From IMG/VR virus record IMGVR_UViG_3300028591_000172: DNA of 20,000 nt. The stretch is one strand, 5' to 3'. Below the pieces are notes generated by a model. It had not been told where the DNA came from. It worked only from the letters and a program-made list of their open reading frames with translations, and did no database searches. Position numbers and translations under genes: made by a program. This document shows positions 2 to 20,000 of this stretch, in pieces. Every line of letters begins with the position of its first letter. Positions within the stretch are counted from its first letter, which is position 1. The stretch is from an uncultured virus (IMG/VR IMGVR_UViG_3300028591_000172) (taxonomy: Duplodnaviria > Heunggongvirae > Uroviricota > Caudoviricetes).

Positions 2-3000
2 GAAGAATTGTTCGCAAAGAATATAGAACGTTATTTAAACGATATTACAGATCCACAAGAAAAAGTTAAAGCTGTTGCCGCAATCTTAAGATATCACGCA
101 CTTTCAGGAGAACGTGGAAAGAATTTACAATTCGCTTTGCTTGGCAGTGATGAATACTTGAGTGGTTTAAGAGATAGTTATTTAAAAGATCCAATCAAAC
201 CAGGCCAATTCTCTGTTGATGGAAGACAATATGATGCCATTAAAGAAGTTGGTAAAGGTAAGAAGATTGTTTCATTAGACTTGGAAAACTTCTACAAAGA
301 CGTTAAAGGTGATGAAAAGATTTACGAAATTGGTTTTGCTATGTTCGACGGCAATGATGAATTAGATTTCGACGCATCTAAACCAACTCAATATAGAATA
401 TTAATTAAGTATGATGATGAAGAATACTTAGAAGACACTATTAAAGGTTATAGAACATTGGCTTCTGATTCCACAGATTCAAGAAAGAAAGCATCATTTA
501 AAAACTATGTCGACAATACAAATCTTACTAGAGATAGATTAGTAAAGAATTCTGATGGACAATACATTTATGTTATTCATATTTCATCAGGAGTGAATGC
601 TAATGAAGTATTTACCAAAGCTATAAACAAAATATTATCAATGGCAGGAAATGACTATGTTGTATTAGGTCACAATACTAAAGGTCAAGATTCTGACTTT
701 GATAAGATTAGAAATCAATTCGGAGTTGATATGTATAAGTTACTTAATGGAAAACTTAACATAGATACTTTAATCGATGTAGCTAAAAACGGTTATGCTA
801 CAGATGCTAAGATTAATGAATCATCATTGTCATTAGAAAACTTAGCCAAACAAATGGGAATCGAATACGACGCACACTCCGCTGTAGATGATGCTATATT
901 CACCTATCAATATTTCTTATGGAAAATGAAAAATCAAATCGATGTTGACAAGATGAAGTCAGGATTATATGAAGAATTCGAACACATCTTAGAAAAAATC
1001 GGAGCACAAGATATTGACAGAGATCAACTCAATAGAGAACTTTCTAAAATCAAAGTTGATGGTCAAGAAGTTTCGTTTGCTGATTTCTGGCAAGGTGATG
1101 AATTTAAAGATACATATGAGAAGTATGGAACAAAACTTACTAGTGATATAATTCAAAACTTAATTAATTATAGAAACGCTGTATTCAATAGCGATGAAGC
1201 TAGTTACATTAGAAAGAGAGCAACAAACGTTGAACATGATTTGATATATGAAGCTCAATCTGCACATATAACTTGGTTATCTCACCATGATCAAAATGGT
1301 AATAGTAACTTAGATAATTTCAGAGAAAGAATCAGTTTGTTTATTAAACCAAACGAAAATGGTCAAGTAACAAGAACTGAATATACTAACGGTATGAAGC
1401 TATTAAATTCTGTCTTCTTAGATTACAGAACAAGAAAGATGGATGGAGATAGAAACTTCAGAATAGAAGATTTCTTAAGAATGGACACCGATGAAATAAT
1501 CGATGCCGCAAGAAACAAACTTCCTGAATTACATATAACAAAAGAAGAATTAACAAATTATGTTAACGCTTATACATCTTCTCAAGAATTTGAAGATAGT
1601 AAACTAACATCAGAAAAAACATTTGCTTCTAATGCTATATATAACATTTATGATGAAATAGGAAAAACTATTGGATTAGATGGTTTTGATGACGGAACAA
1701 AGATTCTCTTATTTGATATCATGTCTGGTCTTAAGACTGGTAATTTTGCCGAAGCATTTAGAACTAATGCTAATGGCCAAAAAGAATTCATTGTTAAATA
1801 TAATGGCCCAGCTTACGAAAAGAGTTATTATGTTAAGTCATTAGAAGATGCCATTAATGATTTCGCAGCATCTGTTGATGTCCAAAGAGAATGGACGATG
1901 CCTTCAGGTGTAATTCCTGGTCAAACTGTAAAATTAGAAAATGGTGATGATTATAGTTTCAAATCTACAGATGTAGGTATGACACGTCAAAAGTTCCAAG
2001 AATTATTTGGTGGAGCAACTATTGAAGATTATAGAGAATCATTAGGACTATCTGATGGCGATGATTTATTCATACAATTATACAGAGTTCCTGGTGTTGG
2101 ACAAAACGTTATACATACATACAGAGTAAGGATATTAGATAGCAACAAATATGATAATGTTCTTCTTGCTCATGATATATTCGCCGCATACCATAGTGGT
2201 GACTTTGATGGTGACAAAGTTATAATTTTAAAACCAACAAAGTATTTACAAAAAGTCGGTAATCAATTAATGAATTCAACCGATAAAATATGGGAAGTTT
2301 CTGATAAGATAATTTCCAAACTATATAGCGACTCAGCTTATGATTCAGCAAGAGATGACCAAGTAGTTAATAACTTCGCAGATTACTGTGAACAAGAATT
2401 TGGCTTACAAACAACTTTACAAAAAGTTTTCGATTACGCTAGAGATTCCTCTTCAGTTAATCCAACAGAAAGAGATGCTTATGAAAAAGCTTTAGCATAT
2501 GCGTTAGATCAAGAGTTAATTAACAAAGTTAACGCCAAAGAATATCCAACCTTATCCACAGATGAGACTTCTAAACAACTTTATTATTCTGATTTCCTCA
2601 CCGATAAGTATTCAGATGAAGTGGTGAGAAGACTTTCATTAGATACAAAATTCTTAATCGACCAAATTATTTCAGTTAAAGACTCAGCTACAGGTTTCGC
2701 ATCTAAAAAATACAAACCATTATTAGAAGGTTTTAGAAAAACAGTAGAAAATGCCGCTGACTTATTTACATATAATCAAGTTGCTTTATCAAAAACAACT
2801 AAGTTAAGACTAGCTCAAGCTATAGAAAATGACGCCGATAATGTTTTCAAATTTATTAAACAATCAATAGGCGAAACATATTCAGCTAAAATCTTTACAT
2901 CAATAGATGAATATCTTGATGACGTATTTAATGATTCAACATTATCTTCAAAACAAAAAGCACAAGGAGTTATCAATGCTTTGAAGATGGCTGAATTATT

Positions 3001-6000
3001 ATACAGAGGAACAGATGAATTTAATGACATGTTCAATAAATTAACTGATGACATGATTAATAATGCTGATTTATCTGACGAGAGAACTAAAGTTAAAAAG
3101 CTTATTGAATACGCTTCATATAACCAAGTTGATACTAATGGTAGAACAATCGAAGATGTAGACAGATTGTCATTAAATGATTTAACAAATCTTAAATATA
3201 ATATAGTTAATAATCTAGATCCAATGATGAGTAGCAGAAGATTCATGGCCACATCTGGAGATACACATCTATCAAGCAATATAGTAACAAACATCAGGTC
3301 ACAAATTAGTAAGTTGACTGATGCTTCTAAAATTAAATATATTGACGCTGACAATTCAACCAACTGGTTTGCTCCAGAAATACTTTTAGCTACAGGAATG
3401 GTTAGAAAACTTACTCCTGATACATTTGCCGAAATAAGTGGAAGATTTACTTTAGCAAGTTCAAGAACCGTTAATGTTAATATTGGTGATTTATCAGAAG
3501 ACCAATTACCAAAACTCAGTGCTGCTTTCTCTAAACGTTTACATGGTTCGATAAAAATCGGAGACCAAGTAATAGTTAGACCAGGAGAAAAAGTTTTATC
3601 AGCAGATGATAAATATGGTAATCACTATACAAATATATTCGATGAGGACGGTGAACTATTAGTTGACCTTAAAGATATTGTTTCTTTGAACGTACAAAAA
3701 GAAATTTCATTGTTTGGTAACAAACTAGGCATCTTAGGTTCAGGCGACATGAAAGGAACACAAGAACTTTCAGTTGCTCATTCAAGAAATAATTATGGTA
3801 TTGGTTTGGATATAGAATCGTTAAATCAATATAGAGAATTGTTAGGTTCTTACTATTCAATAATAAATTCATTTATTGAAACAATAGAACAATCAAAAGG
3901 TAAAATACCTGGAGAAAAATTGACACAATTAAAAGATTTAAATACAAGATTACATCAAGCATCTCAAGAACAAGCACAGCTTACAGCAGATTATAAGAAA
4001 GCTAGAGATGAATTTGATGCTGACCAAATTGCTCATGGTGAACCAACATGGGACCAATTAGCAGCAATGTTCCGTTCAGCAAGTGAAGAAGAAAGAGATG
4101 AAATTAGATTACTACATAAATCCGTAAGTATGTTTTATCAACCAGATATACAGAAATCTATTAATTTACAAAACTCAATCCAAGATCAAATAGATAATTT
4201 GTTATCTGAATTAGGATTCAAAAATAAAGAAGCGTTATATAAACAATTAAATGAATCAAAAGAAAAGATTCAAGAATTAAGAAGAGCAATGAGACAACAA
4301 ATTGGAGAAAGACAAATTGCTCAAAGAGAAAAGAACTTACTTAAAGATTCAGTTGATTTAAAAGAACGAACAATGCTTTATGATTTGATATCAGATATCG
4401 GAATTGATCCAGCTATGTATGATATAGACAATATGGATATCAAAGATGTCAGAAATCTTTATAAAGAATTTAAAAAGATTGACTATGTCGCATCAGAAAA
4501 TTTACTTTCTTATGCCAAGCAAAGTGCCAATATGCCTGGATACGAAATCATTTATCTCGATGAACACATGAATCCTATTGATGATCCAAACAAAGCTGTG
4601 TTTACAAAAATTAAATGTAGAATGTTCTGCCCAGAAGCATTTAAGTTCTGGGATACTAGTGCTGATACATCTAAAATTGACACAATCAGTTATGTCAATG
4701 ATAGAACAAATCCTGATTCATTAGTTCAATTACATGGCAAATGGTATAGCAAAGCAAAAGATGGTAACGGTAATTGGGTTTACGTTTATGATTCCACGAA
4801 AGAAAATGAAATTAATAACGTAATATCAAAAGCTAATACGCCATGGGCTAGCTCAACAAATGGAACTAGAGTGTATAGAACATTGTTGGCTAAGGTACTC
4901 TATGAAAATTGTTCAGCAGCACAAGCAGAATTAAAGGACATCAATGTTTTAATGAAACAAATGCTTGATGGTAATTCTACATCAGGTTCTTTAGGTGCCG
5001 GCATTATCAATAAAATATTCACAATGATGACTGATGATGAAGTTAGAAAACTTTATACATCAGATGATCCATATATTAAATTTATTCTAAATAAAATGAG
5101 AAGCTTTATGCCTAAGCTTACAGCTACAGACGCTAAAGAATGGGCTGGCTCACAAAAATTATTATCTAAAAACAAGGCTAAAGAATTAGCTAAAAACAAA
5201 ACGCTTCTTTACTACTACACAAAAGCTATTGGAAATATTTTAAATGACCAGGCTTTCTTAAGTGATCAAGAAGCAATGAAAAACGGATATCCATTATTAG
5301 ATAACTCTGATACATATTATCCATTAGAAAAATTGATTGCTGAATTAGCTACAGTATCAGGTGTCAAAGACAGTTATGTGAAATCATTCTCACATAATGT
5401 TAATGACTATACTCTTATGGGATTGCTTAACTTCGTCAATGGTAGAAGTGGCAATCAATCTAACGAATTTAATCCTCAATCAAACTGGGATAGTATTGTT
5501 TATCCAAGAAAAGAAGCAGCAATTGCTGGTCCTGCTGGAGGAAAACTTGGCGATACTGCTGAAGGTCAAAAAGGAATTACTCCAGACCAACAAATCATGT
5601 CTCAATATTACGGTGCCAATAGAACTCTTTCTGAATTATTAGGAATGAATAAAGGAAATAATATTTCTCAATCAAGGGATAGTTTCTTACACGGTGACTT
5701 TGCTACTAGATTCACAGATGAAAATAGATCTAGAGAATTAAGCAAAGAATATTATCCACAAAAAATGGGTGATGACCTTGCCGCTTATGCTAGCGATACT
5801 CCAAATAGATTAGCAAAAGCAAGAATGTTAACAACCAAAGAAGACAGAATGATAGCAGATATTGCTCCTCGTTTCCTTGGTGTTGACAGTAATCTTGGTA
5901 TTTCATATACATCCAAGCCACAAATGTTTGATGGAACTTATGGAGATTATGCTAATGAAGCTACATCAGAAATCTATGGCTGGGCTAGACACGATATGAT

Positions 6001-9000
6001 TCAACCAATAGTAGATAGTATTAAACAATCAATCGGTGACACAGAAACATTAGGTAAAAATTTCTTATCAAGCGGAGAAGAAATGGACATGGATGACGTT
6101 TCTGAACTCGCAAAAGGTATCAATAAACCATCTCTTAATGATATTGATAATTTATCTAAAGAGGATTTGGAAGATTTAAGATACATTCAAGGTTATAACG
6201 TTTCTGATCAAGCAACCTCTTTATACAATACTGAAGGTGACCAATACGATAAAGCTATCGAATCGTTAATGAAATCTAAAGCCATTGCTGATTTTGATAT
6301 AGATAGATTAGCATCAAGTAATATCAAACAACCTGGTATGGACAGAGCTATAGTTTCTTATAACATAAATGTAAAAACATATAGAAATCAATTGCTTGGA
6401 AAAGAATTCATTGAAGTTTATAACTATTTAGATTCAAACACTTCATTAAAGAATGGCTATAACGAATACACAAGAATTAAAAATTTATTGTCATCATTAC
6501 AATACTGTGATGAAAAGTTAGAAAAATTAAATTCATTTACAGACAAGAGAGCTGACAGCAGCATTAAATACTACACAAATACAAGAGCCGAAATACTTAA
6601 AGCATTAAATGTTACTGATGAAGCTCAAATAGAAACTGTTAAACAAAATGTAGAAAGATATCATAAACTCTACGCTAATGTAGACACCATGATTTCTACA
6701 GTTTGTGAAAGACTTTATGCAGCTCAAAAAGCTTATTGTAACGCAACTGGTCAAGTCTGTCCTTCAAGAGAAAGATTCTTCTTGCCTACAGGTGTTAATG
6801 GAAACTCTAACCAAGAAAGAAAAGAAAATGCTTCCATATTATTCGCAGGAACGGCTAAATATAATACAAATCCATTTGCTATAAGAAAAGAAACAACTGG
6901 TTTGAATCCAGCTAATGCTTATACTGAATTTGATGCGTTAAAAAATATAGCATCAGTAGCAACAGAAGTTGGAAAGCTTCAAGCTATATTAACTTATAGA
7001 GAAGAAGCAAAATCAAACGGTGCTATGAATAACGCTTTATCATTTGATGAAACATGTAAAGTTGTTAATAAACTTATTACTGTTGATTCAATGAATAATT
7101 CAGGAGCAACAGAAATCGATAGCGTAGAATATAAAGGATATTCATTCTTCACAACATCTGTATTGGATCAATTGGGAATGAATCACTTCTCAGAAAATCC
7201 AAACGCTAAAACATCTTGTGCTAAATATGCTCATCTTTATAACAGTATTTACAATCAACTTATTGCTCCATTAAAAGAAACTTACGGCGACATTACATTT
7301 GGAAACTTAATGTCAATGTATTTAGCTAATCCACAAGATAAAATTCTTGATAGAGCATTAAAAGGTTATGCCGCAATGATGGACATAGTTGGCAAGATAA
7401 CAACTATTCAAATTGAACGTGGTGAAAAAACAACTGTTACAGATGAAATCTATCAAGCAATAACCAAATATGCTAATGAACATGACTTAGCAATAGTTGA
7501 CCAATTCGGTAGAAAATATGATAAAGACTTATCACAATTTAAAGCATTAACTCCATTTGCTACAGATGACTATATATTCAGAGCTACTCATGGTGGTTTA
7601 GCAACTGAAGGAACTTATGAACAAAACGTAGCTCTTGATGCTTTGCGTGGTGACTTATACTTCATGAATAGAACTGTTGCTGATGCTACACAAAAAATGT
7701 TCTACACAAGAGAACCATCTCAAATTAGTAAATTTGCCAACACAGTTAAGAGTTATGCTACAAGATTGATTATGGCAAATCCTGCTAAGTTTGTTTCTCG
7801 TATTATTAACTTCTCAATGTTTGACTTGAACAGTTCATTGCTTACAGGAAACTGGAGTATGGTCAAAGAACTTCCGAAAATTACAAAAGAACTTAGTGGT
7901 TATTTACAAAGCAATGGTGAATATTGCCCTGACTCATTAAGAGAATTCATGAACGTTACAGGAATTGATCCACTAAAAGACCAACAAGTTTTCTATGGTG
8001 AAACAATTGGTGGAGCTAAAACGGCATACGGAAAATGGATTGGCAAACAATTCACAGCTCAGCATTTAGCTAACAGATATGCTTTATGGTTAAGTATTAA
8101 AAACACAATTGATAACGAAGGTATTGATTCTGTTTACAGTAAACTTGGAAACTCATATTATCTCAAAGACCAAATAAAAGAAATGTATGAGAATATGAAA
8201 ACCACAGAATCAGAAGATTCATTAAGTTCATCAGCATCTGCTAGAATTGCCGCTATGGTAGTTGCTAATCAATATGGAACATACAATGATATGCCAGGAT
8301 TAGCGGGAAGTATGAGCCAACATGGATTTATGTTTACAACTTTCCCAATGGCTTTACTAAGATTTGCTAAAAATGAAATTAGATCTGGTGCGTTTGCTAT
8401 TAAAGAAATATTCACAGGAGCAGCCGATACAGCAACTCTTAAATATTTAGGCAGACAACTTGGTTCATTAATTAGTGTTGTAGCAATTCAAGCAGCATTA
8501 CAAATATTGCCAGCATTGTTAATCGCTAATGGTGATAAAGATGAAGAAAAGGAATTAGTTGAAGAAGTCATAAAGAACGATACTTCATTAGATTTATTCC
8601 AATCCATCCTTCTAAACGATGCTGTATATAATACATCAACATTATGGAATCCAATCTATGGTGTTAAATCTATGGTTGCTAATCCAATAATTGATGCTGT
8701 CGAAAAGAATAAAGACAATACATCTGATGGAAAAGCATTACAAATATTTGGAGATGCACTTGCTACATACTTCAATCAAAACATTTGGAATAGAATTAAT
8801 CCATTGGTAACAACAATTCCTAATATCGTTATTCCTAAAAATGATTGGATAAATCCATATGGTAATCAAGGAACTGACTTCTTTGATAACTTAGCTAGAA
8901 AGACATTGTCATACGCACTAGGTACAAATGGTGCTAATGCGTTTATGAATACAGTTGATTCAGCTAAATATGATGACGATGCTAACTTCATAAATACCTT

Positions 9001-9811
9001 AGGCAATGGTTTGAACAATGCCTTAAGAGAAGAACTTGGTAATTCTAAATCTTATAAATCAAGTTGGAAGAATTATAATAATGCTATCAGTATCATCTAT
9101 GATTACAAGAAAGCATCTGATTCTTCTTCATATGATGTTACATCGGCTAACTTTGATAAGAACTTATATTCTGGTTTAAAAGCAAAACTTAAAAATGCGA
9201 TGAAAATAAAATCATCACCTGTTGTTATTTATAATATAATTAAAGAAGCGTTAGATCAGAATGTTAGTAAGAACGAAATCAAATCAGCCATTGCTGCTGT
9301 ATCTGTAAGAATTCAAATTCAAAGATTAGCTAATAAGCAAGACTTCTTCAATTCACTTTCACAAAAAGATTATAATTCTGTGAAGTCTGCTCTAGCTTAT
9401 GAAGATAGTATATTCCCTAACTTAGATGATCTTTATGTCGAGACAGTTGAACAAGAACAACAACATAAGATAAATACTTCTACTCCATCATTCTCATATA
9501 CAAGTTCATTAAAAACTTATGGTTATAACTATCCAACATATCAAACTTATTCAAGTAATAATTACAGACGCTCATACAAAAATAATTACTATAATAATTT
9601 GAGCAACTGGAATACAAATACTTATAAGAAAAAATATCAATACAATCAACAATGTTCAAATCCAATAAATACTTATAATCAAGCTATGAACAATATTAAT
9701 TATGGTGTTTCAACTGACATCTGGGGTAATCAAACAAGACATTACACTGATGGAACTGAGTATACCGTAAGACAACAAGGTATGCCTTTCCCAGGAGGAA
9801 ATAAAAAGTAA
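2..9811 (+). CDS. Giant multidomain virion protein (5'-truncated, >3,267 aa): DEDDh exonuclease + two-barrel (DPBB) RNA polymerase + helical ejection-protein-like C-terminus; putative virion RNA polymerase
   Basis: The frame is open from the window edge (GAA GAA TTG at 2-10) to TAA 9809-9811, so the true start is probably upstream. Motifs seen: DLE / GHN..D / HSAVDD (DEDDh); LYRVP...AAYHSGDFDGDKV (beta'-like catalytic loop); GNKLG..MKG (beta-like). It sits directly upstream of the terminase-portal-capsid genes. Confidence 0.85.
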   Translation, partial: EELFAKNIERYLNDITDPQEKVKAVAAILRYHALSGERGKNLQFALLGSDEYLSGLRDSYLKDPIKPGQFSVDGRQYDAIKEVGKGKKIVSLDLENFYKDVKGDEKIYEIGFAMFDGNDELDFDASKPTQYRILIKYDDEEYLEDTIKGYRTLASDSTDSRKKASFKNYVDNTNLTRDRLVKNSDGQYIYVIHISSGVNANEVFTKAINKILSMAGNDYVVLGHNTKGQDSDFDKIRNQFGVDMYKLLNGKLNIDTLIDVAKNGYATDAKINESSLSLENLAKQMGIEYDAHSAVDDAIFTYQYFLWKMKNQIDVDKMKSGLYEEFEHILEKIGAQDIDRDQLNRELSKIKVDGQEVSFADFWQGDEFKDTYEKYGTKLTSDIIQNLINYRNAVFNSDEASYIRKRATNVEHDLIYEAQSAHITWLSHHDQNGNSNLDNFRERISLFIKPNENGQVTRTEYTNGMKLLNSVFLDYRTRKMDGDRNFRIEDFLRMDTDEIIDAARNKLPELHITKEELTNYVNAYTSSQEFEDSKLTSEKTFASNAIYNIYDEIGKTIGLDGFDDGTKILLFDIMSGLKTGNFAEAFRTNANGQKEFIVKYNGPAYEKSYYVKSLEDAINDFAASVDVQREWTMPSGVIPGQTVKLENGDDYSFKSTDVGMTRQKFQELFGGATIEDYRESLGLSDGDDLFIQLYRVPGVGQNVIHTYRVRILDSNKYDNVLLAHDIFAAYHSGDFDGDKVIILKPTKYLQKVGNQLMNSTDKIWEVSDKIISKLYSDSAYDSARDDQVVNNFADYCEQEFGLQTTLQKVFDYARDSSSVNPTERDAYEKALAYALDQELINKVNAKEYPTLSTDETSKQLYYSDFLTDKYSDEVVRRLSLDTKFLIDQIISVKDSATGFASKKYKPLLEGFRKTVENAADLFTYNQVALSKTTKLRLAQAIENDADNVFKFIKQSIGETYSAKIFTSIDEYLDDVFNDSTLSSKQKAQGVINALKMAELLYRGTDEFNDMFNKLTDDMINNADLSDERTKVKKLIEYASYNQVDTNGRTIEDVDRLSLNDLTNLKYNIVNNLDPMMSSRRFMATSGDTHLSSNIVTNIRSQISKLTDASKIKYIDADNSTNWFAPEILLATGMVRKLTPDTFAEISGRFTLASSRTVNVNIGDLSEDQLPKLSAAFSKRLHGSIKIGDQVIVRPGEKVLSADDKYGNHYTNIFDEDGELLVDLKDIVSLNVQKEISLFGNKLGILGSGDMKGTQELSVAHSRNNYGIGLDIESLNQYRELLGSYYSIINSFIETIEQSKGKIPGEKLTQLKDLNTRLHQASQEQAQLTADYKKARDEFDADQIAHGEPTWDQLAAMFRSASEEERDEIRLLHKSVSMFYQPDIQKSINLQNSIQDQIDNLLSELGFKNKEALYKQLNESKEKIQELRRAMRQQIGERQIAQREKNLLKDSVDLKERTMLYDLISDIGIDPAMYDIDNMDIKDVRNLYKEFKKIDYVASENLLSYAKQSANMPGYEIIYLDEHMNPIDDPNKAVFTKIKCRMFCPEAFKFWDTSADTSKIDTISYVNDRTNPDSLVQLHGKWYSKAKDGNGNWVYVYDSTKENEINNVISKANTPWASSTNGTRVYRTLLAKVLYENCSAAQAELKDINVLMKQMLDGNSTSGSLGAGIINKIFTMMTDDEVRKLYTSDDPYIKFILNKMRSFMPKLTATDAKEWAGSQKLLSKNKAKELAKNKTLLYYYTKAIGNILNDQAFLSDQEAMKNGYPLLDNSDTYYPLEKLIAELATVSGVKDSYVKSFSHNVNDYTLMGLLNFVNGRSGNQSNEFNPQSNWDSIVYPRKEAAIAGPAGGKLGDTAEGQKGITPDQQIMSQYYGANRTLSELLGMNKGNNISQSRDSFLHGDFATRFTDENRSRELSKEYYPQKMGDDLAAYASDTPNRLAKARMLTTKEDRMIADIAPRFLGVDSNLGISYTSKPQMFDGTYGDYANEATSEIYGWARHDMIQPIVDSIKQSIGDTETLGKNFLSSGEEMDMDDVSELAKGINKPSLNDIDNLSKEDLEDLRYIQGYNVSDQATSLYNTEGDQYDKAIESLMKSKAIADFDIDRLASSNIKQPGMDRAIVSYNINVKTYRNQLLGKEFIEVYNYLDSNTSLKNGYNEYTRIKNLLSSLQYCDEKLEKLNSFTDKRADSSIKYYTNTRAEILKALNVTDEAQIETVKQNVERYHKLYANVDTMISTVCERLYAAQKAYCNATGQVCPSRERFFLPTGVNGNSNQERKENASILFAGTAKYNTNPFAIRKETTGLNPANAYTEFDALKNIASVATEVGKLQAILTYREEAKSNGAMNNALSFDETCKVVNKLITVDSMNNSGATEIDSVEYKGYSFFTTSVLDQLGMNHFSENPNAKTSCAKYAHLYNSIYNQLIAPLKETYGDITFGNLMSMYLANPQDKILDRALKGYAAMMDIVGKITTIQIERGEKTTVTDEIYQAITKYANEHDLAIVDQFGRKYDKDLSQFKALTPFATDDYIFRATHGGLATEGTYEQNVALDALRGDLYFMNRTVADATQKMFYTREPSQISKFANTVKSYATRLIMANPAKFVSRIINFSMFDLNSSLLTGNWSMVKELPKITKELSGYLQSNGEYCPDSLREFMNVTGIDPLKDQQVFYGETIGGAKTAYGKWIGKQFTAQHLANRYALWLSIKNTIDNEGIDSVYSKLGNSYYLKDQIKEMYENMKTTESEDSLSSSASARIAAMVVANQYGTYNDMPGLAGSMSQHGFMFTTFPMALLRFAKNEIRSGAFAIKEIFTGAADTATLKYLGRQLGSLISVVAIQAALQILPALLIANGDKDEEKELVEEVIKNDTSLDLFQSILLNDAVYNTSTLWNPIYGVKSMVANPIIDAVEKNKDNTSDGKALQIFGDALATYFNQNIWNRINPLVTTIPNIVIPKNDWINPYGNQGTDFFDNLARKTLSYALGTNGANAFMNTVDSAKYDDDANFINTLGNGLNNALREELGNSKSYKSSWKNYNNAISIIYDYKKASDSSSYDVTSANFDKNLYSGLKAKLKNAMKIKSSPVVIYNIIKEALDQNVSKNEIKSAIAAVSVRIQIQRLANKQDFFNSLSQKDYNSVKSALAYEDSIFPNLDDLYVETVEQEQQHKINTSTPSFSYTSSLKTYGYNYPTYQTYSSNNYRRSYKNNYYNNLSNWNTNTYKKKYQYNQQCSNPINTYNQAMNNINYGVSTDIWGNQTRHYTDGTEYTVRQQGMPFPGGNKK
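263..925 (+). other. DEDDh (DnaQ/RNase T-like) 3'-5' exonuclease domain within the giant ORF
   Basis: ExoI IVSLDLE (D91 at 278, E93 at 284) is followed by IYEIG. ExoII is VVLGHN...DSDF (H222, D230), then IDTL and SLENLA. ExoIII is AHSAVDDA (H290, D295). Numbering follows the track translation. All catalytic residues are present in canonical order. Confidence 0.9.
1870..2240 (+). other. beta'-like double-psi beta-barrel of a two-barrel RNA polymerase, with catalytic DFDGD
   Basis: DVGMTRQKFQELF ... FIQLYRVPGVGQNVIHTYRVRIL ... VLLAHDIFAAYHSGDFDGDKVIILKP parallels bacterial RpoC CGLPKKMALELF ... [22 protein letters not shown] ... [25 protein letters not shown] (recalled sequence). DFDGD is encoded at 2201-2215 and the conserved Arg (R693) at 2084. 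Confidence 0.88.
3370..4520 (+). other. Candidate beta-like double-psi beta-barrel of RNA polymerase, split by a coiled-coil insertion
   Basis: EILLA...PDTFAEISGRFT resembles RpoB VAF...EDSILVSER. IKIGDQVIVRPGEKVL resembles the flap segment IGAEV.GGDILV. VQKEISLFGNKLGILGSGDMKGT resembles KRRIQPGDKMAGRHGNKGV (K1239 at 3722, K1249 at 3752). IDYVASEN at 4478 may match VDIVLNP. Confidence 0.62.
9793..9798 (+). promoter_or_regulatory. Shine-Dalgarno AGGAGG for terminase, inside the last codons of the giant ORF; TAATG stop/start overlap
   Basis: ccAGGAGGaaataaaaagTAATG; TAA 9809-9811 overlaps ATG 9811-9813. Confidence 0.75.
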
Positions 9812-11391
9812 TGGCTCAAACTCTTGAAGTAATCCCTAATTATAGACCTAATCCAAAACAAGTGCTCCTTCACAATGCTCCTGTATCTTATGATGATATC
9901 TGGATCATTCTCTACGGAGGAGCACGTGGTGCTGGTAAGTCTGCTGGTATCTTAGCAGATGCCGTTCAATTCTGTATGACTTATCCAGGAGCAAAGTGTT
10001 GTATTATCCGTGAAACATTAGATGCTGTTAAGCAATCATTCTTAGATAAGCTTCCTACACTTTTCCCTCAATATGTAAATGGTGTGAAGATATATGACTA
10101 TCGTGAAAAGTCCACGTCTTTCTATCCATCACGATGTATCATATTTCCTAATGGAAGTTACATAACCTTACAACGTGTTGCTGATTACAAAGAAGCAATC
10201 GCCAAGCAAGGTTGGGAATTCCATTACCTCGCAGTTGATGAAGTTACCAAGCATGAAGAACGCACTATCAACTATCTATTGACCTGCGTTCGTTCTGCTG
10301 TTATCACAAATAAATACACAGGAAAACCTCTTCGTATTCCTACGAAAGTTGTTTTCGGTTGTAACCCTGGTGGCATCGGTCACAAATGGGTAAAAGAAAG
10401 ATTCATCGACACAACAGTCGTAAAATATAATGAGCACAAAACTCCTATTCAAACTAAAGACCACATAGAAGTTATTGAAGATCCACATAAGAAAGGTGTC
10501 TTCGTTAAACGATTCATCAGATTCATTCCTGCTACATACTTAGACAATCCATTCTTAAACCAATCTTATGTTGCTAACTTAGATTCTCTTCCAGAGCATC
10601 AAAAGCAATTAGATATGTATGGCAACTGGGATGTTGTCGCTGGAAAATACTTCGACTTACATCCTGAACAGATTGTTGAGCCTGGTATGGTCGCACAAGA
10701 TTTACGTAAGTTCTCAGGTCACGTTGAAATCTTCTGTTCCATCGACTGGGGTTATCAACCATCAGCCGCTTGTTGTTTGTGGCACGCTGTCTTTCCAGAC
10801 CATAGAGTAATAACATTCAAAGAGTTGTATACTCGCGATATGGTATTCGAAGATTTCGTTAAACAAATTGCTGAAGATTCTAGAGATATGGAAATCTCTG
10901 CCATCTGTTTACCACACGATATGTTCAGACACGGTGATAGATACCGTGATGATTCAGGAAAGATTATCGGTGAAATGAAATCCGACGTCTTTGAATATTA
11001 TGGTTTACCTCCTGTTGGAGTTGAATCTGGTAAAGGTAAAGTCAGTCTTCGTTACGACAAGATACATTCAGCTTGCTCCCTAAGACACGAAGATGGTGTT
11101 TACAAATTTAGAATTTCTAAAGCATGTGTAAACTTATTAGATGAAATGGATCATGCGGTTCATGATGATGTTGATCCAGTCGTTCTTAAAGGTAGCGACC
11201 ACGCAATTGATGCTTACGGTCACTTCTTAGTTTATTATTCTGATGATATTGAACCATTAGGATTTGAATCTCTAGTAAAGGATAACCGTTCTTATCTACA
11301 AAGATTAATGGATGAAGATGAAGAACGTTTAGAACAAGAAGAGGAAGATGAACTTTCGGTTGCGATTGATAGTATTTATGACGTGTGGTAG
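9811..11391 (+). CDS. terL: Phage terminase large subunit
   Basis: Adenine-binding PNPKQ, Walker A LYGGARGAGKS, Walker B YLAVDE, coupling motif GCNPGG, FIPATYLDNPFL, RNase H-like nuclease IDWG and C-terminal DHAIDA. Confidence 0.96.
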   Translation: MAQTLEVIPNYRPNPKQVLLHNAPVSYDDIWIILYGGARGAGKSAGILADAVQFCMTYPGAKCCIIRETLDAVKQSFLDKLPTLFPQYVNGVKIYDYREKSTSFYPSRCIIFPNGSYITLQRVADYKEAIAKQGWEFHYLAVDEVTKHEERTINYLLTCVRSAVITNKYTGKPLRIPTKVVFGCNPGGIGHKWVKERFIDTTVVKYNEHKTPIQTKDHIEVIEDPHKKGVFVKRFIRFIPATYLDNPFLNQSYVANLDSLPEHQKQLDMYGNWDVVAGKYFDLHPEQIVEPGMVAQDLRKFSGHVEIFCSIDWGYQPSAACCLWHAVFPDHRVITFKELYTRDMVFEDFVKQIAEDSRDMEISAICLPHDMFRHGDRYRDDSGKIIGEMKSDVFEYYGLPPVGVESGKGKVSLRYDKIHSACSLRHEDGVYKFRISKACVNLLDEMDHAVHDDVDPVVLKGSDHAIDAYGHFLVYYSDDIEPLGFESLVKDNRSYLQRLMDEDEERLEQEEEDELSVAIDSIYDVW

Positions 11392-17438: not shown

Positions 17439-20000
17439 ATGCCAACCAGAACAAAAGACTATCCTATATATACGTATGATGAACCTGCTGTATACAAGGA
17501 TTTTTCTGGTGGAATAAATACTGATCCTAGTAATGATCATCTATTAGATACAGAATTAAGAGACTGTGTTAATATGACATACTTTTCTGGTGCCTTAGTT
17601 AAACGTCAAGGTGCTAAAAAAATATGTGATGTTGTATGTGAAGATAGTTTATTCAACATTCAAGGAGTATTTCTATTCACATATAAAATTACTTATTTAA
17701 TTGTTGCCGCCGATGGCAAACTTTACCAGGGAATTTATAATGAAGATACAACAATTAGATTAAACAGACTGTATATAAAATACACTAAGCCAACCGAAGA
17801 CAAAGTTTTCGATGAACTTAATGTATTCTCAGGCGTAGAAGAAATAGATTCTAACGATTATATAAAGAGCACAAACCATGAAGGATATGTCCAAACATTT
17901 TTTAGAAACATCCAAACAGACGAAACATTCACTAAAAATCTAAGAGGAGATTTTGACGACATTACTGGTGGTGCTGTTAATGTTGGTGATGTTTTTATTT
18001 CAAATAATACATTTAGATATTTATGTATTAAAAATTTTGTAAAAGAATTCTGGTATCCAAGTGTATCTCAAAAGTGGGAATTATTAGCTTATACAGGTTC
18101 AGAAGCAGAGCCTGGAAGTATTTTTAAATACGTTGAAGACGGCGTTACATATACAATACAAGCTGATGATCCAAGCGTTGAAGCAAAAATAAACGCAATT
18201 ACTTCATCAAATAATGTTCATATTTTTGATATAGATGACAATAGAGTTTGGTACGCTAATGACTTTTGCTATTACGATGGAAAATTTTACAAGTGTAAAG
18301 TAACTCATCAAAATATGCACAACGCTTTAATGAATAACGAATACTTTATTGACTTAACAAATTTAAGCGGAACAAATTTTGTAGAAGAATCATTCTTTGT
18401 TTTCCAAAACTATAGAAAAATTGAAGCCGCTACATTAAATAACAAATTATATATAGCAACAGGAACAAGAATAATTGAAGTTTCTATGTTCGCAAACAAT
18501 CTCGTTGCCCGTCCTATTACTCCGTATCTTTGTAATTATACAGAAATCACAAAGATTGGTTACAACTATATGTCACCATATCCTGAACTTGCTGTCGCTA
18601 GTCAATTAAATACAGTTACAACAAGCATTACAGGAATCAAAGTCACAAAGAAAATTGCTGGTAATTTCTTATTAACTCCAATTATGAATATACAAATAGG
18701 TGACTCAGTTGATAACTATTATTATCGTTGGGAGAAAAATATTAATGGAACCTGGTATACTGTTGTTCCTTTCGCAGCACAACGTCAAGCGTTTTTACCA
18801 TCTGGAGATGGAACATCAATACCAGTAGAAAGAAAAAATTATTATTATATAGAAGTTGATGATGCCGATAAATATACTTATCGTTGTACATTCGCTAGAG
18901 CTTTTGAAACAACAACAGATGTAGTTGAACCATGGAATATGGCATCCAATTATAAAATTGGCGATGTTGTTTCTATAGATCAAAGAATTTTTAAATGTAT
19001 AAATTCACATAATGCTGAAGATATTGTGTATCAGAACAATGTATTTGATTTATACGGATATAAAGCAATTACATCTAATGGCGAAACTAATTACGAACGA
19101 ATTCAATTATGGGAAGAAGTATATAATTTAGAATTATTACTTTATATCCACAAAACAATTAATCAAAGTGGTGAAGTAGTTAATACTTTTACAACAGTTT
19201 ACGATTATAAGATTGATAAAGTTACTGGTGAATATTATGGTTCAGCCACATCAGTTTTGTTTGATAATGAATTAGGAATAAATGATAACTTCTTAATGAT
19301 TCAATCATGTACCAAGGTTATTGCTGATGGTAATAAATTATTATTCTATGCCGACAGATTCAATTCAGGTATGTGGTTCAAAACAATTATAAATAATCCT
19401 GGTTATGTAACTGATAGAGGTAATCTTTCATTCAAAACAAATAAGAATGAAGCAGTTATCAAAGTTATTCCATTCCAAGGGAATATACTTGTGTTTGCTA
19501 ACTCAGATGAAATTGGTGGATCTATTCATTTAGTCCAAGGTAACGGCGATGACTATGACGATCAATCAGGATATTATTCACCATACCAAAGGAGAACAAT
19601 CAATGCGTCCATTACATCATCGAATGCTGACTCTATTCAAATTTGTGACAACATCATTGTGTTTAAATATTTCAATAGAGTTTACTACATTAATGCTAGC
19701 GATCTTAACAATGATACGGTTAAAGTAAATCCTTGTAATGACAGAGTTCTTAACAATGAAGGCGATGTTAAAATTCCTTGGGATGATGATGATTGTATTT
19801 CAGAAGTAACCAAAGATTACTATGCTTTATTATGGAAAGAAAAATACGCACTAGATTCAAGTGGAGATTTAATTCAAACTCATCCTGGTATGCGTGTAAA
19901 AATGTATTACAAAATGTCTGTTCAATATGATGACAACACATATGGTATGCCATGGTTAAGAGATGAAGGAAAAATATTCGACACTAACTTTATTTTATAC
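17439..20000 (+). CDS. Tail nozzle / tail tubular protein B-like beta-propeller protein (3'-truncated, >854 aa), absent from the ORF track
   Basis: ATG 17439 follows GAGGA. My translation shows no stop before the window end: MPTRTKDYPIYTYDEPAVYKDFSGGINTDPSNDHLLDTELRDCVNMTYFSGALVKRQG... The DFSGG..N..GAL.KR.G N-terminus is typical of T7 gp12/P22 gp10-like proteins, and propeller-like strands follow (NKLYIATG, NKLLFY, GNILVF). Confidence 0.82.
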   Translation, partial: MPTRTKDYPIYTYDEPAVYKDFSGGINTDPSNDHLLDTELRDCVNMTYFSGALVKRQGAKKICDVVCEDSLFNIQGVFLFTYKITYLIVAADGKLYQGIYNEDTTIRLNRLYIKYTKPTEDKVFDELNVFSGVEEIDSNDYIKSTNHEGYVQTFFRNIQTDETFTKNLRGDFDDITGGAVNVGDVFISNNTFRYLCIKNFVKEFWYPSVSQKWELLAYTGSEAEPGSIFKYVEDGVTYTIQADDPSVEAKINAITSSNNVHIFDIDDNRVWYANDFCYYDGKFYKCKVTHQNMHNALMNNEYFIDLTNLSGTNFVEESFFVFQNYRKIEAATLNNKLYIATGTRIIEVSMFANNLVARPITPYLCNYTEITKIGYNYMSPYPELAVASQLNTVTTSITGIKVTKKIAGNFLLTPIMNIQIGDSVDNYYYRWEKNINGTWYTVVPFAAQRQAFLPSGDGTSIPVERKNYYYIEVDDADKYTYRCTFARAFETTTDVVEPWNMASNYKIGDVVSIDQRIFKCINSHNAEDIVYQNNVFDLYGYKAITSNGETNYERIQLWEEVYNLELLLYIHKTINQSGEVVNTFTTVYDYKIDKVTGEYYGSATSVLFDNELGINDNFLMIQSCTKVIADGNKLLFYADRFNSGMWFKTIINNPGYVTDRGNLSFKTNKNEAVIKVIPFQGNILVFANSDEIGGSIHLVQGNGDDYDDQSGYYSPYQRRTINASITSSNADSIQICDNIIVFKYFNRVYYINASDLNNDTVKVNPCNDRVLNNEGDVKIPWDDDDCISEVTKDYYALLWKEKYALDSSGDLIQTHPGMRVKMYYKMSVQYDDNTYGMPWLRDEGKIFDTNFILY

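Follow-up and report, generated by a model that had tools for sequence, protein, structure and literature searches.

The Giant Gene and Its Domains

The stretch of DNA analyzed here, termed the window, comprises 20,000 nucleotides from an uncultured Caudoviricetes phage (IMG/VR record IMGVR_UViG_3300028591_000172) and opens inside a giant gene whose product carries a DEDDh (DnaQ-like) 3'-5' exonuclease domain followed by a DxDxD-containing region that is probably part of an RNA polymerase (RNAP). The fusion of the exonuclease with this polymerase-type barrel is real and is conserved in the giant proteins of related phages. Two residue numberings are used, P0001 for the translation of the window from base 2 and P0003 for the full-length protein of 5,771 amino acids, which is 100% identical over the query and ends with the window translation (phmmer search of 1.84 billion representative proteins). 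Residue 1 of P0001 is residue 2503 of P0003, and the 5' part of the gene lies outside the window. The open reading frame (ORF), treated in an earlier note on this DNA as starting within the window, in fact continues beyond the 5' edge of the window, which places the DEDDh domain in the interior of the 5,771-amino acid protein and not near its N terminus. The catalytic residues listed in that note as D91, E93, D230, H290, and D295 had been counted from a TTG at position 8 and are the same residues as D93, E95, D232, H292, and D297 counted from base 2, corresponding to D2595, E2597, D2734, H2794, and D2799 in P0003. Related giants are labeled G or L when they come from IMG/VR and metagenome loci, with P0005 being a giant from a protein collection; the full-length ones measure 5,254, 5,608, 5,877, and 6,088 amino acids, and P0005 measures 5,917. 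The features of the locus, in window coordinates and all on the + strand, are as follows.

2..9811, +, giant phage protein, C-terminal 3,269 codons and stop; ORF 5'-open at the window edge
239..1000, +, DEDDh (DnaQ-like) 3'-5' exonuclease domain; P0001 amino acids 80-333, P0003 amino acids 2582-2835
278..286, +, ExoI motif D-L-E (D93, E95); invariant in 16 of 16 aligned domains
695..697, +, ExoII aspartate D232, preceded by GHN; invariant in 16 of 16
875..892, +, ExoIII motif H-S-A-V-D-D (H292, D297); His and Asp invariant in 16 of 16; main source of the Pfam and PDB sequence matches
2084..2236, +, predicted beta-prime-type barrel core, R695-V-P697 ... G733-D-F-D-G-D738 ... P745
3722..3760, +, conserved K-x9-K-G-T motif (K1241, K1251, T1253); K1241 and T1253 in 16 of 16 giants, K1251 in 15 of 16
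8459..8533, +, hydrophobic transmembrane-like segment of 25 residues, P0003 amino acids 5322-5346; Kyte-Doolittle 19-residue mean up to 2.27
9811..11391, +, terminase large subunit; phrog_979 at E 7e-37, PF04466 at E 6.3e-10

The DEDDh Exonuclease Domain

A hidden Markov model (HMM) seeded on the window and G004 sequences located the domain by iteration 4 in 18 sequences, which represent 17 distinct proteins as L042 is the contig of G001. Sixteen of the 17 were aligned (alignment A6), leaving out P0005 (92% identity to G004 over this region) and the duplicate L042. Column identity averages 24%, and no columns are invariant except those of the five DEDDh residues, numbered D14, E16, D153, H213, and D218 in the window fragment. 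These residues lie in the contexts IVSLDLENFY, GHNTKGQDSDFDKI, and YDAHSAVDDAIF, and their codons, read directly, occupy window positions 278-280, 284-286, 695-697, 875-877, and 890-892. The complete DEDDh set that had been noted on the same polypeptide as DFDGD is thereby borne out. Additional stretches appearing at HMM iteration 5 in L035 (giant amino acids 2014-2180) and L033 (1408-1561) match the non-catalytic middle of the profile and, because the catalytic motifs are missing, probably reflect profile drift or composition bias.

The AlphaFold2 model calculated from A6 has a mean predicted local distance difference test score (pLDDT) of 80.5 and a predicted template modeling score of 0.81, with a strand-helix order that is DnaQ-like; the model calculated with only two sequences has a pLDDT of 49.5. 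Superposition onto PDB structures using Foldseek gives 147 chains at E <= 0.001, with the fold match spanning model residues 2-233 (window approximately 242-937), and among the matches listed all are DEDD-type exonuclease domains, comprising those of Pol alpha and Pol epsilon, the Streptococcus DnaQ domain, Pop2/CAF1, TREX1/2, QIP, Exo I, and 3'hExo. With the poorer first model, Foldseek placed the exonuclease domain of Neurospora QIP at the top; with the good model QIP ranks 13th. QIP acts in the RNA-silencing pathway of QDE-1, a eukaryotic relative of the phage single-chain two-barrel RNAPs.

At the level of primary sequence, similarity is concentrated in the ExoIII region, where the H-x4-D of the phage domain aligns with the H-x4-D of Exo I, epsilon, RNase T, and Orn. 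The A6 profile matches 10 PDB chains at E <= 1, eight of which are exonucleases (Exo I at E 0.0054) and two unrelated. RNase_T (PF00929) is the top Pfam family of the whole fragment (18.5 bits, E 0.0031), and the isolated domain scores 22.2-22.5 bits (E 1.8e-4), both below the cut-off of 24 and with only the ExoIII part aligned. The same family ranks first in 4 of the 16 members at E <= 0.01, with G002 reaching 25.3 bits when the pieces are summed. Using hhalign, a six-sequence profile aligned with Escherichia coli dnaQ, rnt, and orn over ExoIII only (P 0.007-0.009, controls 0.34-0.92), and language-model features place the domain beside DEDDh_C clusters (0.93, with 178 of 256 features in common). 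A single-sequence phmmer search of the PDB with the exonuclease region returned chance matches only. The restriction of invariance to the five catalytic residues, the predicted fold, the Foldseek and PDB profile matches, and the language-model features together indicate that the DEDDh domain is genuine and that strong purifying selection acts on its active site.

The Polymerase-type Barrel

The GDFDGD motif lies at window positions 2198-2215 and is part of a pattern of conserved columns, running from an R-x-P motif to DFDGD, that resembles the pattern from R-x-P to NADFDGD in the RNAP beta-prime subunit. R695 is present in 15 of 16 giants, and P697, D734, D736, D738, and P745 are present in all 16. 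PF00623 (Rpb1 domain 2) is the sole Pfam family matching more than one member, with 4 of 16 at E <= 0.1 and a best value of 1.8e-6, and in the relative G001 it reaches 26.6 bits against a cut-off of 25.3. A five-sequence profile (A3) has seven PDB matches, which are weak (E 0.26-1.2) and are all RNAP largest subunits aligned at NADFDGD. The hhalign comparison of a 16-sequence barrel profile with E. coli beta-prime covers 96 columns from R-x-P through DFDGD (beta-prime residues 390-492, P 0.001), and the same site is found in the full-length beta-prime sequence at P 0.0063, compared with 0.076 for the reversed control and 0.13-0.19 for rpoB. RNAP identity of the DxDxD region is therefore probable on sequence grounds, the support being at the level of the family and for a beta-prime-type barrel.

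The interval between the exonuclease and DxDxD has almost no conserved columns, and single-sequence phmmer against the PDB with the polymerase region returned no matches. The K-x9-K-G-T motif is located approximately 500 amino acids downstream of GDFDGD. It has no PDB matches, and its hhalign comparison with the rpoB barrel gives P 0.66; a reversed barrel order, with the beta-prime-type barrel first and a beta-type barrel carrying K-x9-K-G-T after it, was set aside, as neither the PDB search nor hhalign supports it.

Conservation of the Fusion and the Exonuclease-less Relative L021

Relatives of the locus were collected with the terminase as query, giving eight IMG/VR loci and 25 metagenome loci, and a giant ORF adjoins the terminase in every locus with enough upstream DNA. 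Searching IMG/VR with the exonuclease-bearing protein returned none, searching it with profile A3 returned only contigs already in the set, and the metagenome scan with profile A4 returned none. The nearest giant, G004, is 47% identical to the window protein. In the others, alignment is restricted to the final ~700 amino acids (26-28% identity) plus a short stretch near DFDGD. GD[FVL]DGD is carried by every one of the 14 metagenome giant fragments that reach 2,715 amino acids or more, the shorter fragments stopping before the site. L033 is cut by the contig end and is uninformative on the presence or loss of the exonuclease.

The exonuclease is present in 17 of 18 distinct giants and is placed roughly 400-530 amino acids upstream of DxDxD in all 17 carriers; in the window protein the distance from D297 to D734 is 437 amino acids. 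The spacing of about 330 amino acids proposed in the earlier note corresponds roughly to the interval from the end of the fold to the start of the conserved barrel region at R695. Carriage on independent contigs from different assemblies means that the fusion is not an assembly join, which disposes of the doubt about a read or assembly error raised in that note. As for its further concern, that homologues might always encode the exonuclease separately, 17 of 18 giants have the domain fused, and no stand-alone relative was found in the phmmer search of the 1.84 billion representatives or, at E <= 0.001, among proteins of 124-494 amino acids searched with the A6 profile, a search limited by word sharing and by the extreme divergence of the family. 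Retention of this fixed spacing in proteins that are only ~27% identical in patches suggests that the exonuclease and the barrel work together on one and the same nucleic acid.

The one giant lacking the domain belongs to L021, whose terminase is the closest to that of the window (89% identity) and whose giant occupies L021:3-9998. No exonuclease is present in the 955 amino acids before DFDGD, nor elsewhere in the 21.5-kb locus. The L021 giant aligns with G001 in two collinear blocks, L021 residues 3-528 with G001 2392-2926 and residues 524-960 with G001 3177-3683, and the block skipped is exactly the G001 exonuclease domain (2943-3177), with both flanks and DFDGD retained. The exonuclease, from these alignments, is a discrete module that was lost or never gained by the L021 lineage. 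Its clean absence indicates that the exonuclease function is accessory and the domain dispensable to the rest of the protein. The L021 giant is approximately 29% identical to that of the window in the last 950 amino acids although the terminases are 89% identical; either the packaging genes change far more slowly than the giant gene, or the latter is exchanged on its own.

Outside this set of loci, single-sequence searches gave almost no relatives of the giant. No PHROGs family was found for it, tblastn with four different queries gave no matches to it in GenBank phages, and the phmmer search of the 1.84 billion representatives returned, beyond the protein itself, only P0004, a spurious LamG-repeat protein. 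A word-indexed search of 5.8 billion proteins with P0001 returned none, the protein itself falling just outside the length band, and the same collection queried with P0003 gave the protein itself and P0005 only. For the N-terminal region of the giant, a language-model (ESM) look-up yielded only leads below 0.9.

Comparison with Known Systems

Two described phage systems resemble the giant most closely. The first is gp96 of Thermus phage P23-45, a 5,002-amino acid virion two-barrel RNAP fused to a tape measure, in which the conserved DFDGD is described as the only sequence link to RNAPs (PMC10770324, consulted in part). The likeness extends, as far as the sections seen describe gp96, to a giant virion protein with transmembrane segments and enzymatic cargo and a polymerase that is one module of a longer chain, the virion location of the present protein being predicted. 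The RNAP is, however, N-terminal in gp96 and central here, and no sequence similarity between the two was detected; the words "exonuclease" and "nuclease" have zero occurrences in the text seen of the P23-45 paper. The present phage has a P22-like portal, and for this reason its giant protein need not be a tape measure.

The second is gp66 of the crAss-like phage phi14:2, a large virion-packaged single-chain RNAP (bioRxiv 10.1101/2020.03.07.982082, consulted in part). The Asp triad, extreme divergence, and giant multidomain genes are shared features, according to the parts seen of that preprint and of Yutin 2021 (PMC7886860). "Exonuclease" and "nuclease" do not appear in the preprint text seen, nor "exonuclease" in that of Yutin 2021, whose Figure 3 domain drawing lies outside this statement. 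The terminase of the present phage differs in not being crAss-like, with at most 30% identity to those of Arthrobacter, Pelagibacter, and Roseobacter phages, and the window protein has no sequence match to 6VR4. A jumbo-phage overview describes an RNAP subunit with a fused HD domain and, in the part seen, mentions no DEDDh domain (PMC7824862).

Relative to the known DEDDh exonucleases (TREX1/TREX2, 3'hExo/ERI1, ERI2, E. coli Exo I, and PolC/epsilon; PF00929), the phage domain has an insertion of ~50 amino acids between ExoI and ExoII and sits inside a protein of 5,771 amino acids, with sequence similarity confined to the ExoIII region. Coronavirus nsp14 ExoN is a DEDDh exonuclease that takes 3' nucleotides off the product of the viral RNA polymerase and is, to our knowledge, the only well known case of exonucleolytic RNA proofreading; the account of proofreading in the earlier note had omitted this enzyme, in which a DEDDh domain proofreads for an RNA polymerase with a different fold. 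The nsp14 domain differs from that described here in serving a right-hand RNA-dependent RNA polymerase, not a two-barrel enzyme, and in being a separate polypeptide after processing. Archaeal PolD, from the part of the description seen, also pairs a two-barrel polymerase with a 3'-5' exonuclease (PMC4996933). In PolD, DP2 is the two-barrel catalytic subunit, the DP1 exonuclease is a subunit of its own, and the product is DNA. DP1 also has another fold (Mre11-like).

No description of an exonuclease-barrel fusion was found in full-text literature searches on crAss-like, virion, and two-barrel RNAPs and on DEDD/DnaQ-like exonucleases, in agreement with the statement in the earlier note that no characterized two-barrel RNAP with a fused DEDDh domain was known to it. 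The giant appears to be a polymerase protein of the virion type to which an exonuclease module has been added, a combination not found described.

Proposed Role and Alternative Explanations

The observations comprise the exonuclease fold, five catalytic residues without variation, a constant placement of the domain ahead of DxDxD and, for the family as a whole, probable homology to beta-prime. The reading preferred here, held with about as much doubt as confidence, is that the giant is a virion-carried, ejected protein with a single-chain RNAP and that an active DEDDh exonuclease works in cis beside the polymerase. Carriage in the virion is suggested by the position of the gene adjoining packaging and head genes, by its size and two transmembrane-like segments, and by the precedents of gp96, gp66, and N4 gp50. 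By analogy with crAss-like gp66, P23-45 gp96, and N4 gp50, the protein would be packaged, ejected, and bring RNA polymerase into the cell. The exonuclease would then act at the start of infection, removing 3' nucleotides from nucleic acid handled by the polymerase. In one version it would resect the 3' strand of the entering DNA end to give a single-stranded template, and in a second version it would take off the 3' end of the transcript in trimming, proofreading, or rescue of backtracked complexes. Both versions, and the injected nuclease considered below, were among the roles proposed in the earlier note. A conserved, active-looking 3'-5' exonuclease at a fixed distance from a two-barrel polymerase would give this class of enzymes a new accessory, and the pairing points to either exonucleolytic RNA proofreading or an injected polymerase that makes its template from the end of the genome as it enters. 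The domain is small (~250 amino acids), and the precise deletion in L021 represents a natural control within the family.

A narrower form of the second version, that the DEDDh domain is the exonucleolytic proofreader or backtrack-rescue activity of a two-barrel RNAP, clearing the misincorporated or extruded 3' end of the transcript, is unlikely when taken by itself. All characterized two-barrel RNAPs known to us correct and rescue transcripts by endonucleolytic cleavage in their own active site, assisted by Gre or TFIIS. If true, this arrangement would replace that assisted cleavage, would be the DNA-phage counterpart of coronavirus nsp14 ExoN, and would represent the first two-barrel RNAP proofread by an exonuclease.

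Several observations weigh against the preferred reading. The PF00623 match of the window itself has an E value of only 0.11, with none at E <= 0.1 in the 731-amino acid context, and a 735-position profile matched nine PDB chains with no RNAP among them. A second barrel, bridge helix, and trigger loop were not identified by PDB profile search, column conservation, or hhalign. The "RNA polymerase catalytic barrel" of the earlier note consequently stands as a beta-prime-type barrel at the level of the family, but less firmly for the window sequence and without its partner barrel. The gp66 and gp96 structures are unmatched by PDB sequence and profile searches, as is the N4 virion RNAP; virion phage RNAPs are too divergent for such searches. 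The clean deletion in L021 shows that the polymerase part can exist without the exonuclease. The fold of the domain leaves the choice of nucleic acid substrate undecided, since DNA enzymes (TREX1/2, Exo I) as well as RNA enzymes (3'hExo, ERI2, CAF1) are found among its nearest structural neighbors. Packaging and ejection with the virion, exonuclease activity, RNA synthesis, coupling of the two, and the substrate are all inferred.

The strongest alternative, possible but on balance doubtful, is that the exonuclease is an independent injected effector, carried on the giant for delivery only and attacking nucleic acid of the host or of competitors, or nucleotide signals, in a manner unlinked to the polymerase. 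A role in host take-over or counter-defense would be consistent with the separable, dispensable module indicated by the clean loss in the otherwise collinear L021, and with the rapid divergence of the giant (29% identity compared with 89% for the terminase), as conflict genes often evolve quickly. Giant ejected proteins can also carry unrelated cargo, an example being the metallopeptidase of P23-45 gp96 (PMC10770324, in the part seen). A domain carried only for delivery would however be free to sit anywhere in 5,200-6,100 amino acids, yet it is found 400-530 amino acids before DxDxD in 17 of 17 carriers, and this constancy of place argues for a unit with the polymerase and against independent cargo.

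It is improbable that the DxDxD region is some other metal-binding domain and that the giant, with the exonuclease standing alone in it, has a structural or ejection function. The weak PF00623 value of the window, the long profile lacking an RNAP match, and the missing second barrel would all fit such a protein, but PF00623 exceeds the cut-off in G001 and is matched by 4 of the 16 members, the beta-prime alignment extends over 96 columns from R-x-P through DFDGD, and all seven PDB matches of A3 are RNAP subunits at that site.

A two-barrel enzyme that makes DNA, in the manner of PolD, or primers, with the DEDDh domain as its proofreader, is very improbable. DEDDh domains classically proofread DNA polymerases, the best fold matches include the exonuclease domains of Pol alpha and Pol epsilon, and archaeal PolD provides the precedent of a two-barrel polymerase with a proofreading exonuclease subunit (PMC4996933, as far as seen). 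The Pfam and PDB matches of the barrel are nevertheless to RNAP Rpb1 domain 2 and not to PolD, and the gene lies in the structural block and not in a replication block. Three of the five related records contain a family A DNA polymerase (PolA), with no family B DNA polymerase found in the related records, and the barrel therefore need not be the replicase. That the exonuclease is a catalytically dead structural remnant is scarcely credible, with nothing found in its favor (the loss in L021 shows dispensability only) and five catalytic residues remaining invariant while nearly all else has diverged.

Neighboring Genes and Other Features

The second transmembrane-like segment of the giant lies at P0003 462-480, outside the window, and the two hydrophobic segments may be the membrane-inserting parts of an ejection protein. 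The segment at 8459-8533 is located near the C-terminal conserved region. The final ~130 residues of the giant (window ~9400-9808) form a low-complexity tail rich in Tyr, Asn, Gln, and Ser.

The stop codon of the giant and the start of the terminase share one base at 9811, and the junction is equally tight in the relatives, suggesting coupled expression of the two genes. The terminase is followed by two small ORFs, a P22-like portal (PF16510, E 7.6e-10), a 210-amino acid ORF, and a weakly capsid-like ORF of 538 amino acids, with further ORFs of structural size downstream in the window. An ORF at 17439-20000, which encodes at least 854 amino acids and runs off the 3' end of the window, contains a CBM_5_12 carbohydrate-binding module (E 5.8e-7) and may be a tail fiber or spike.

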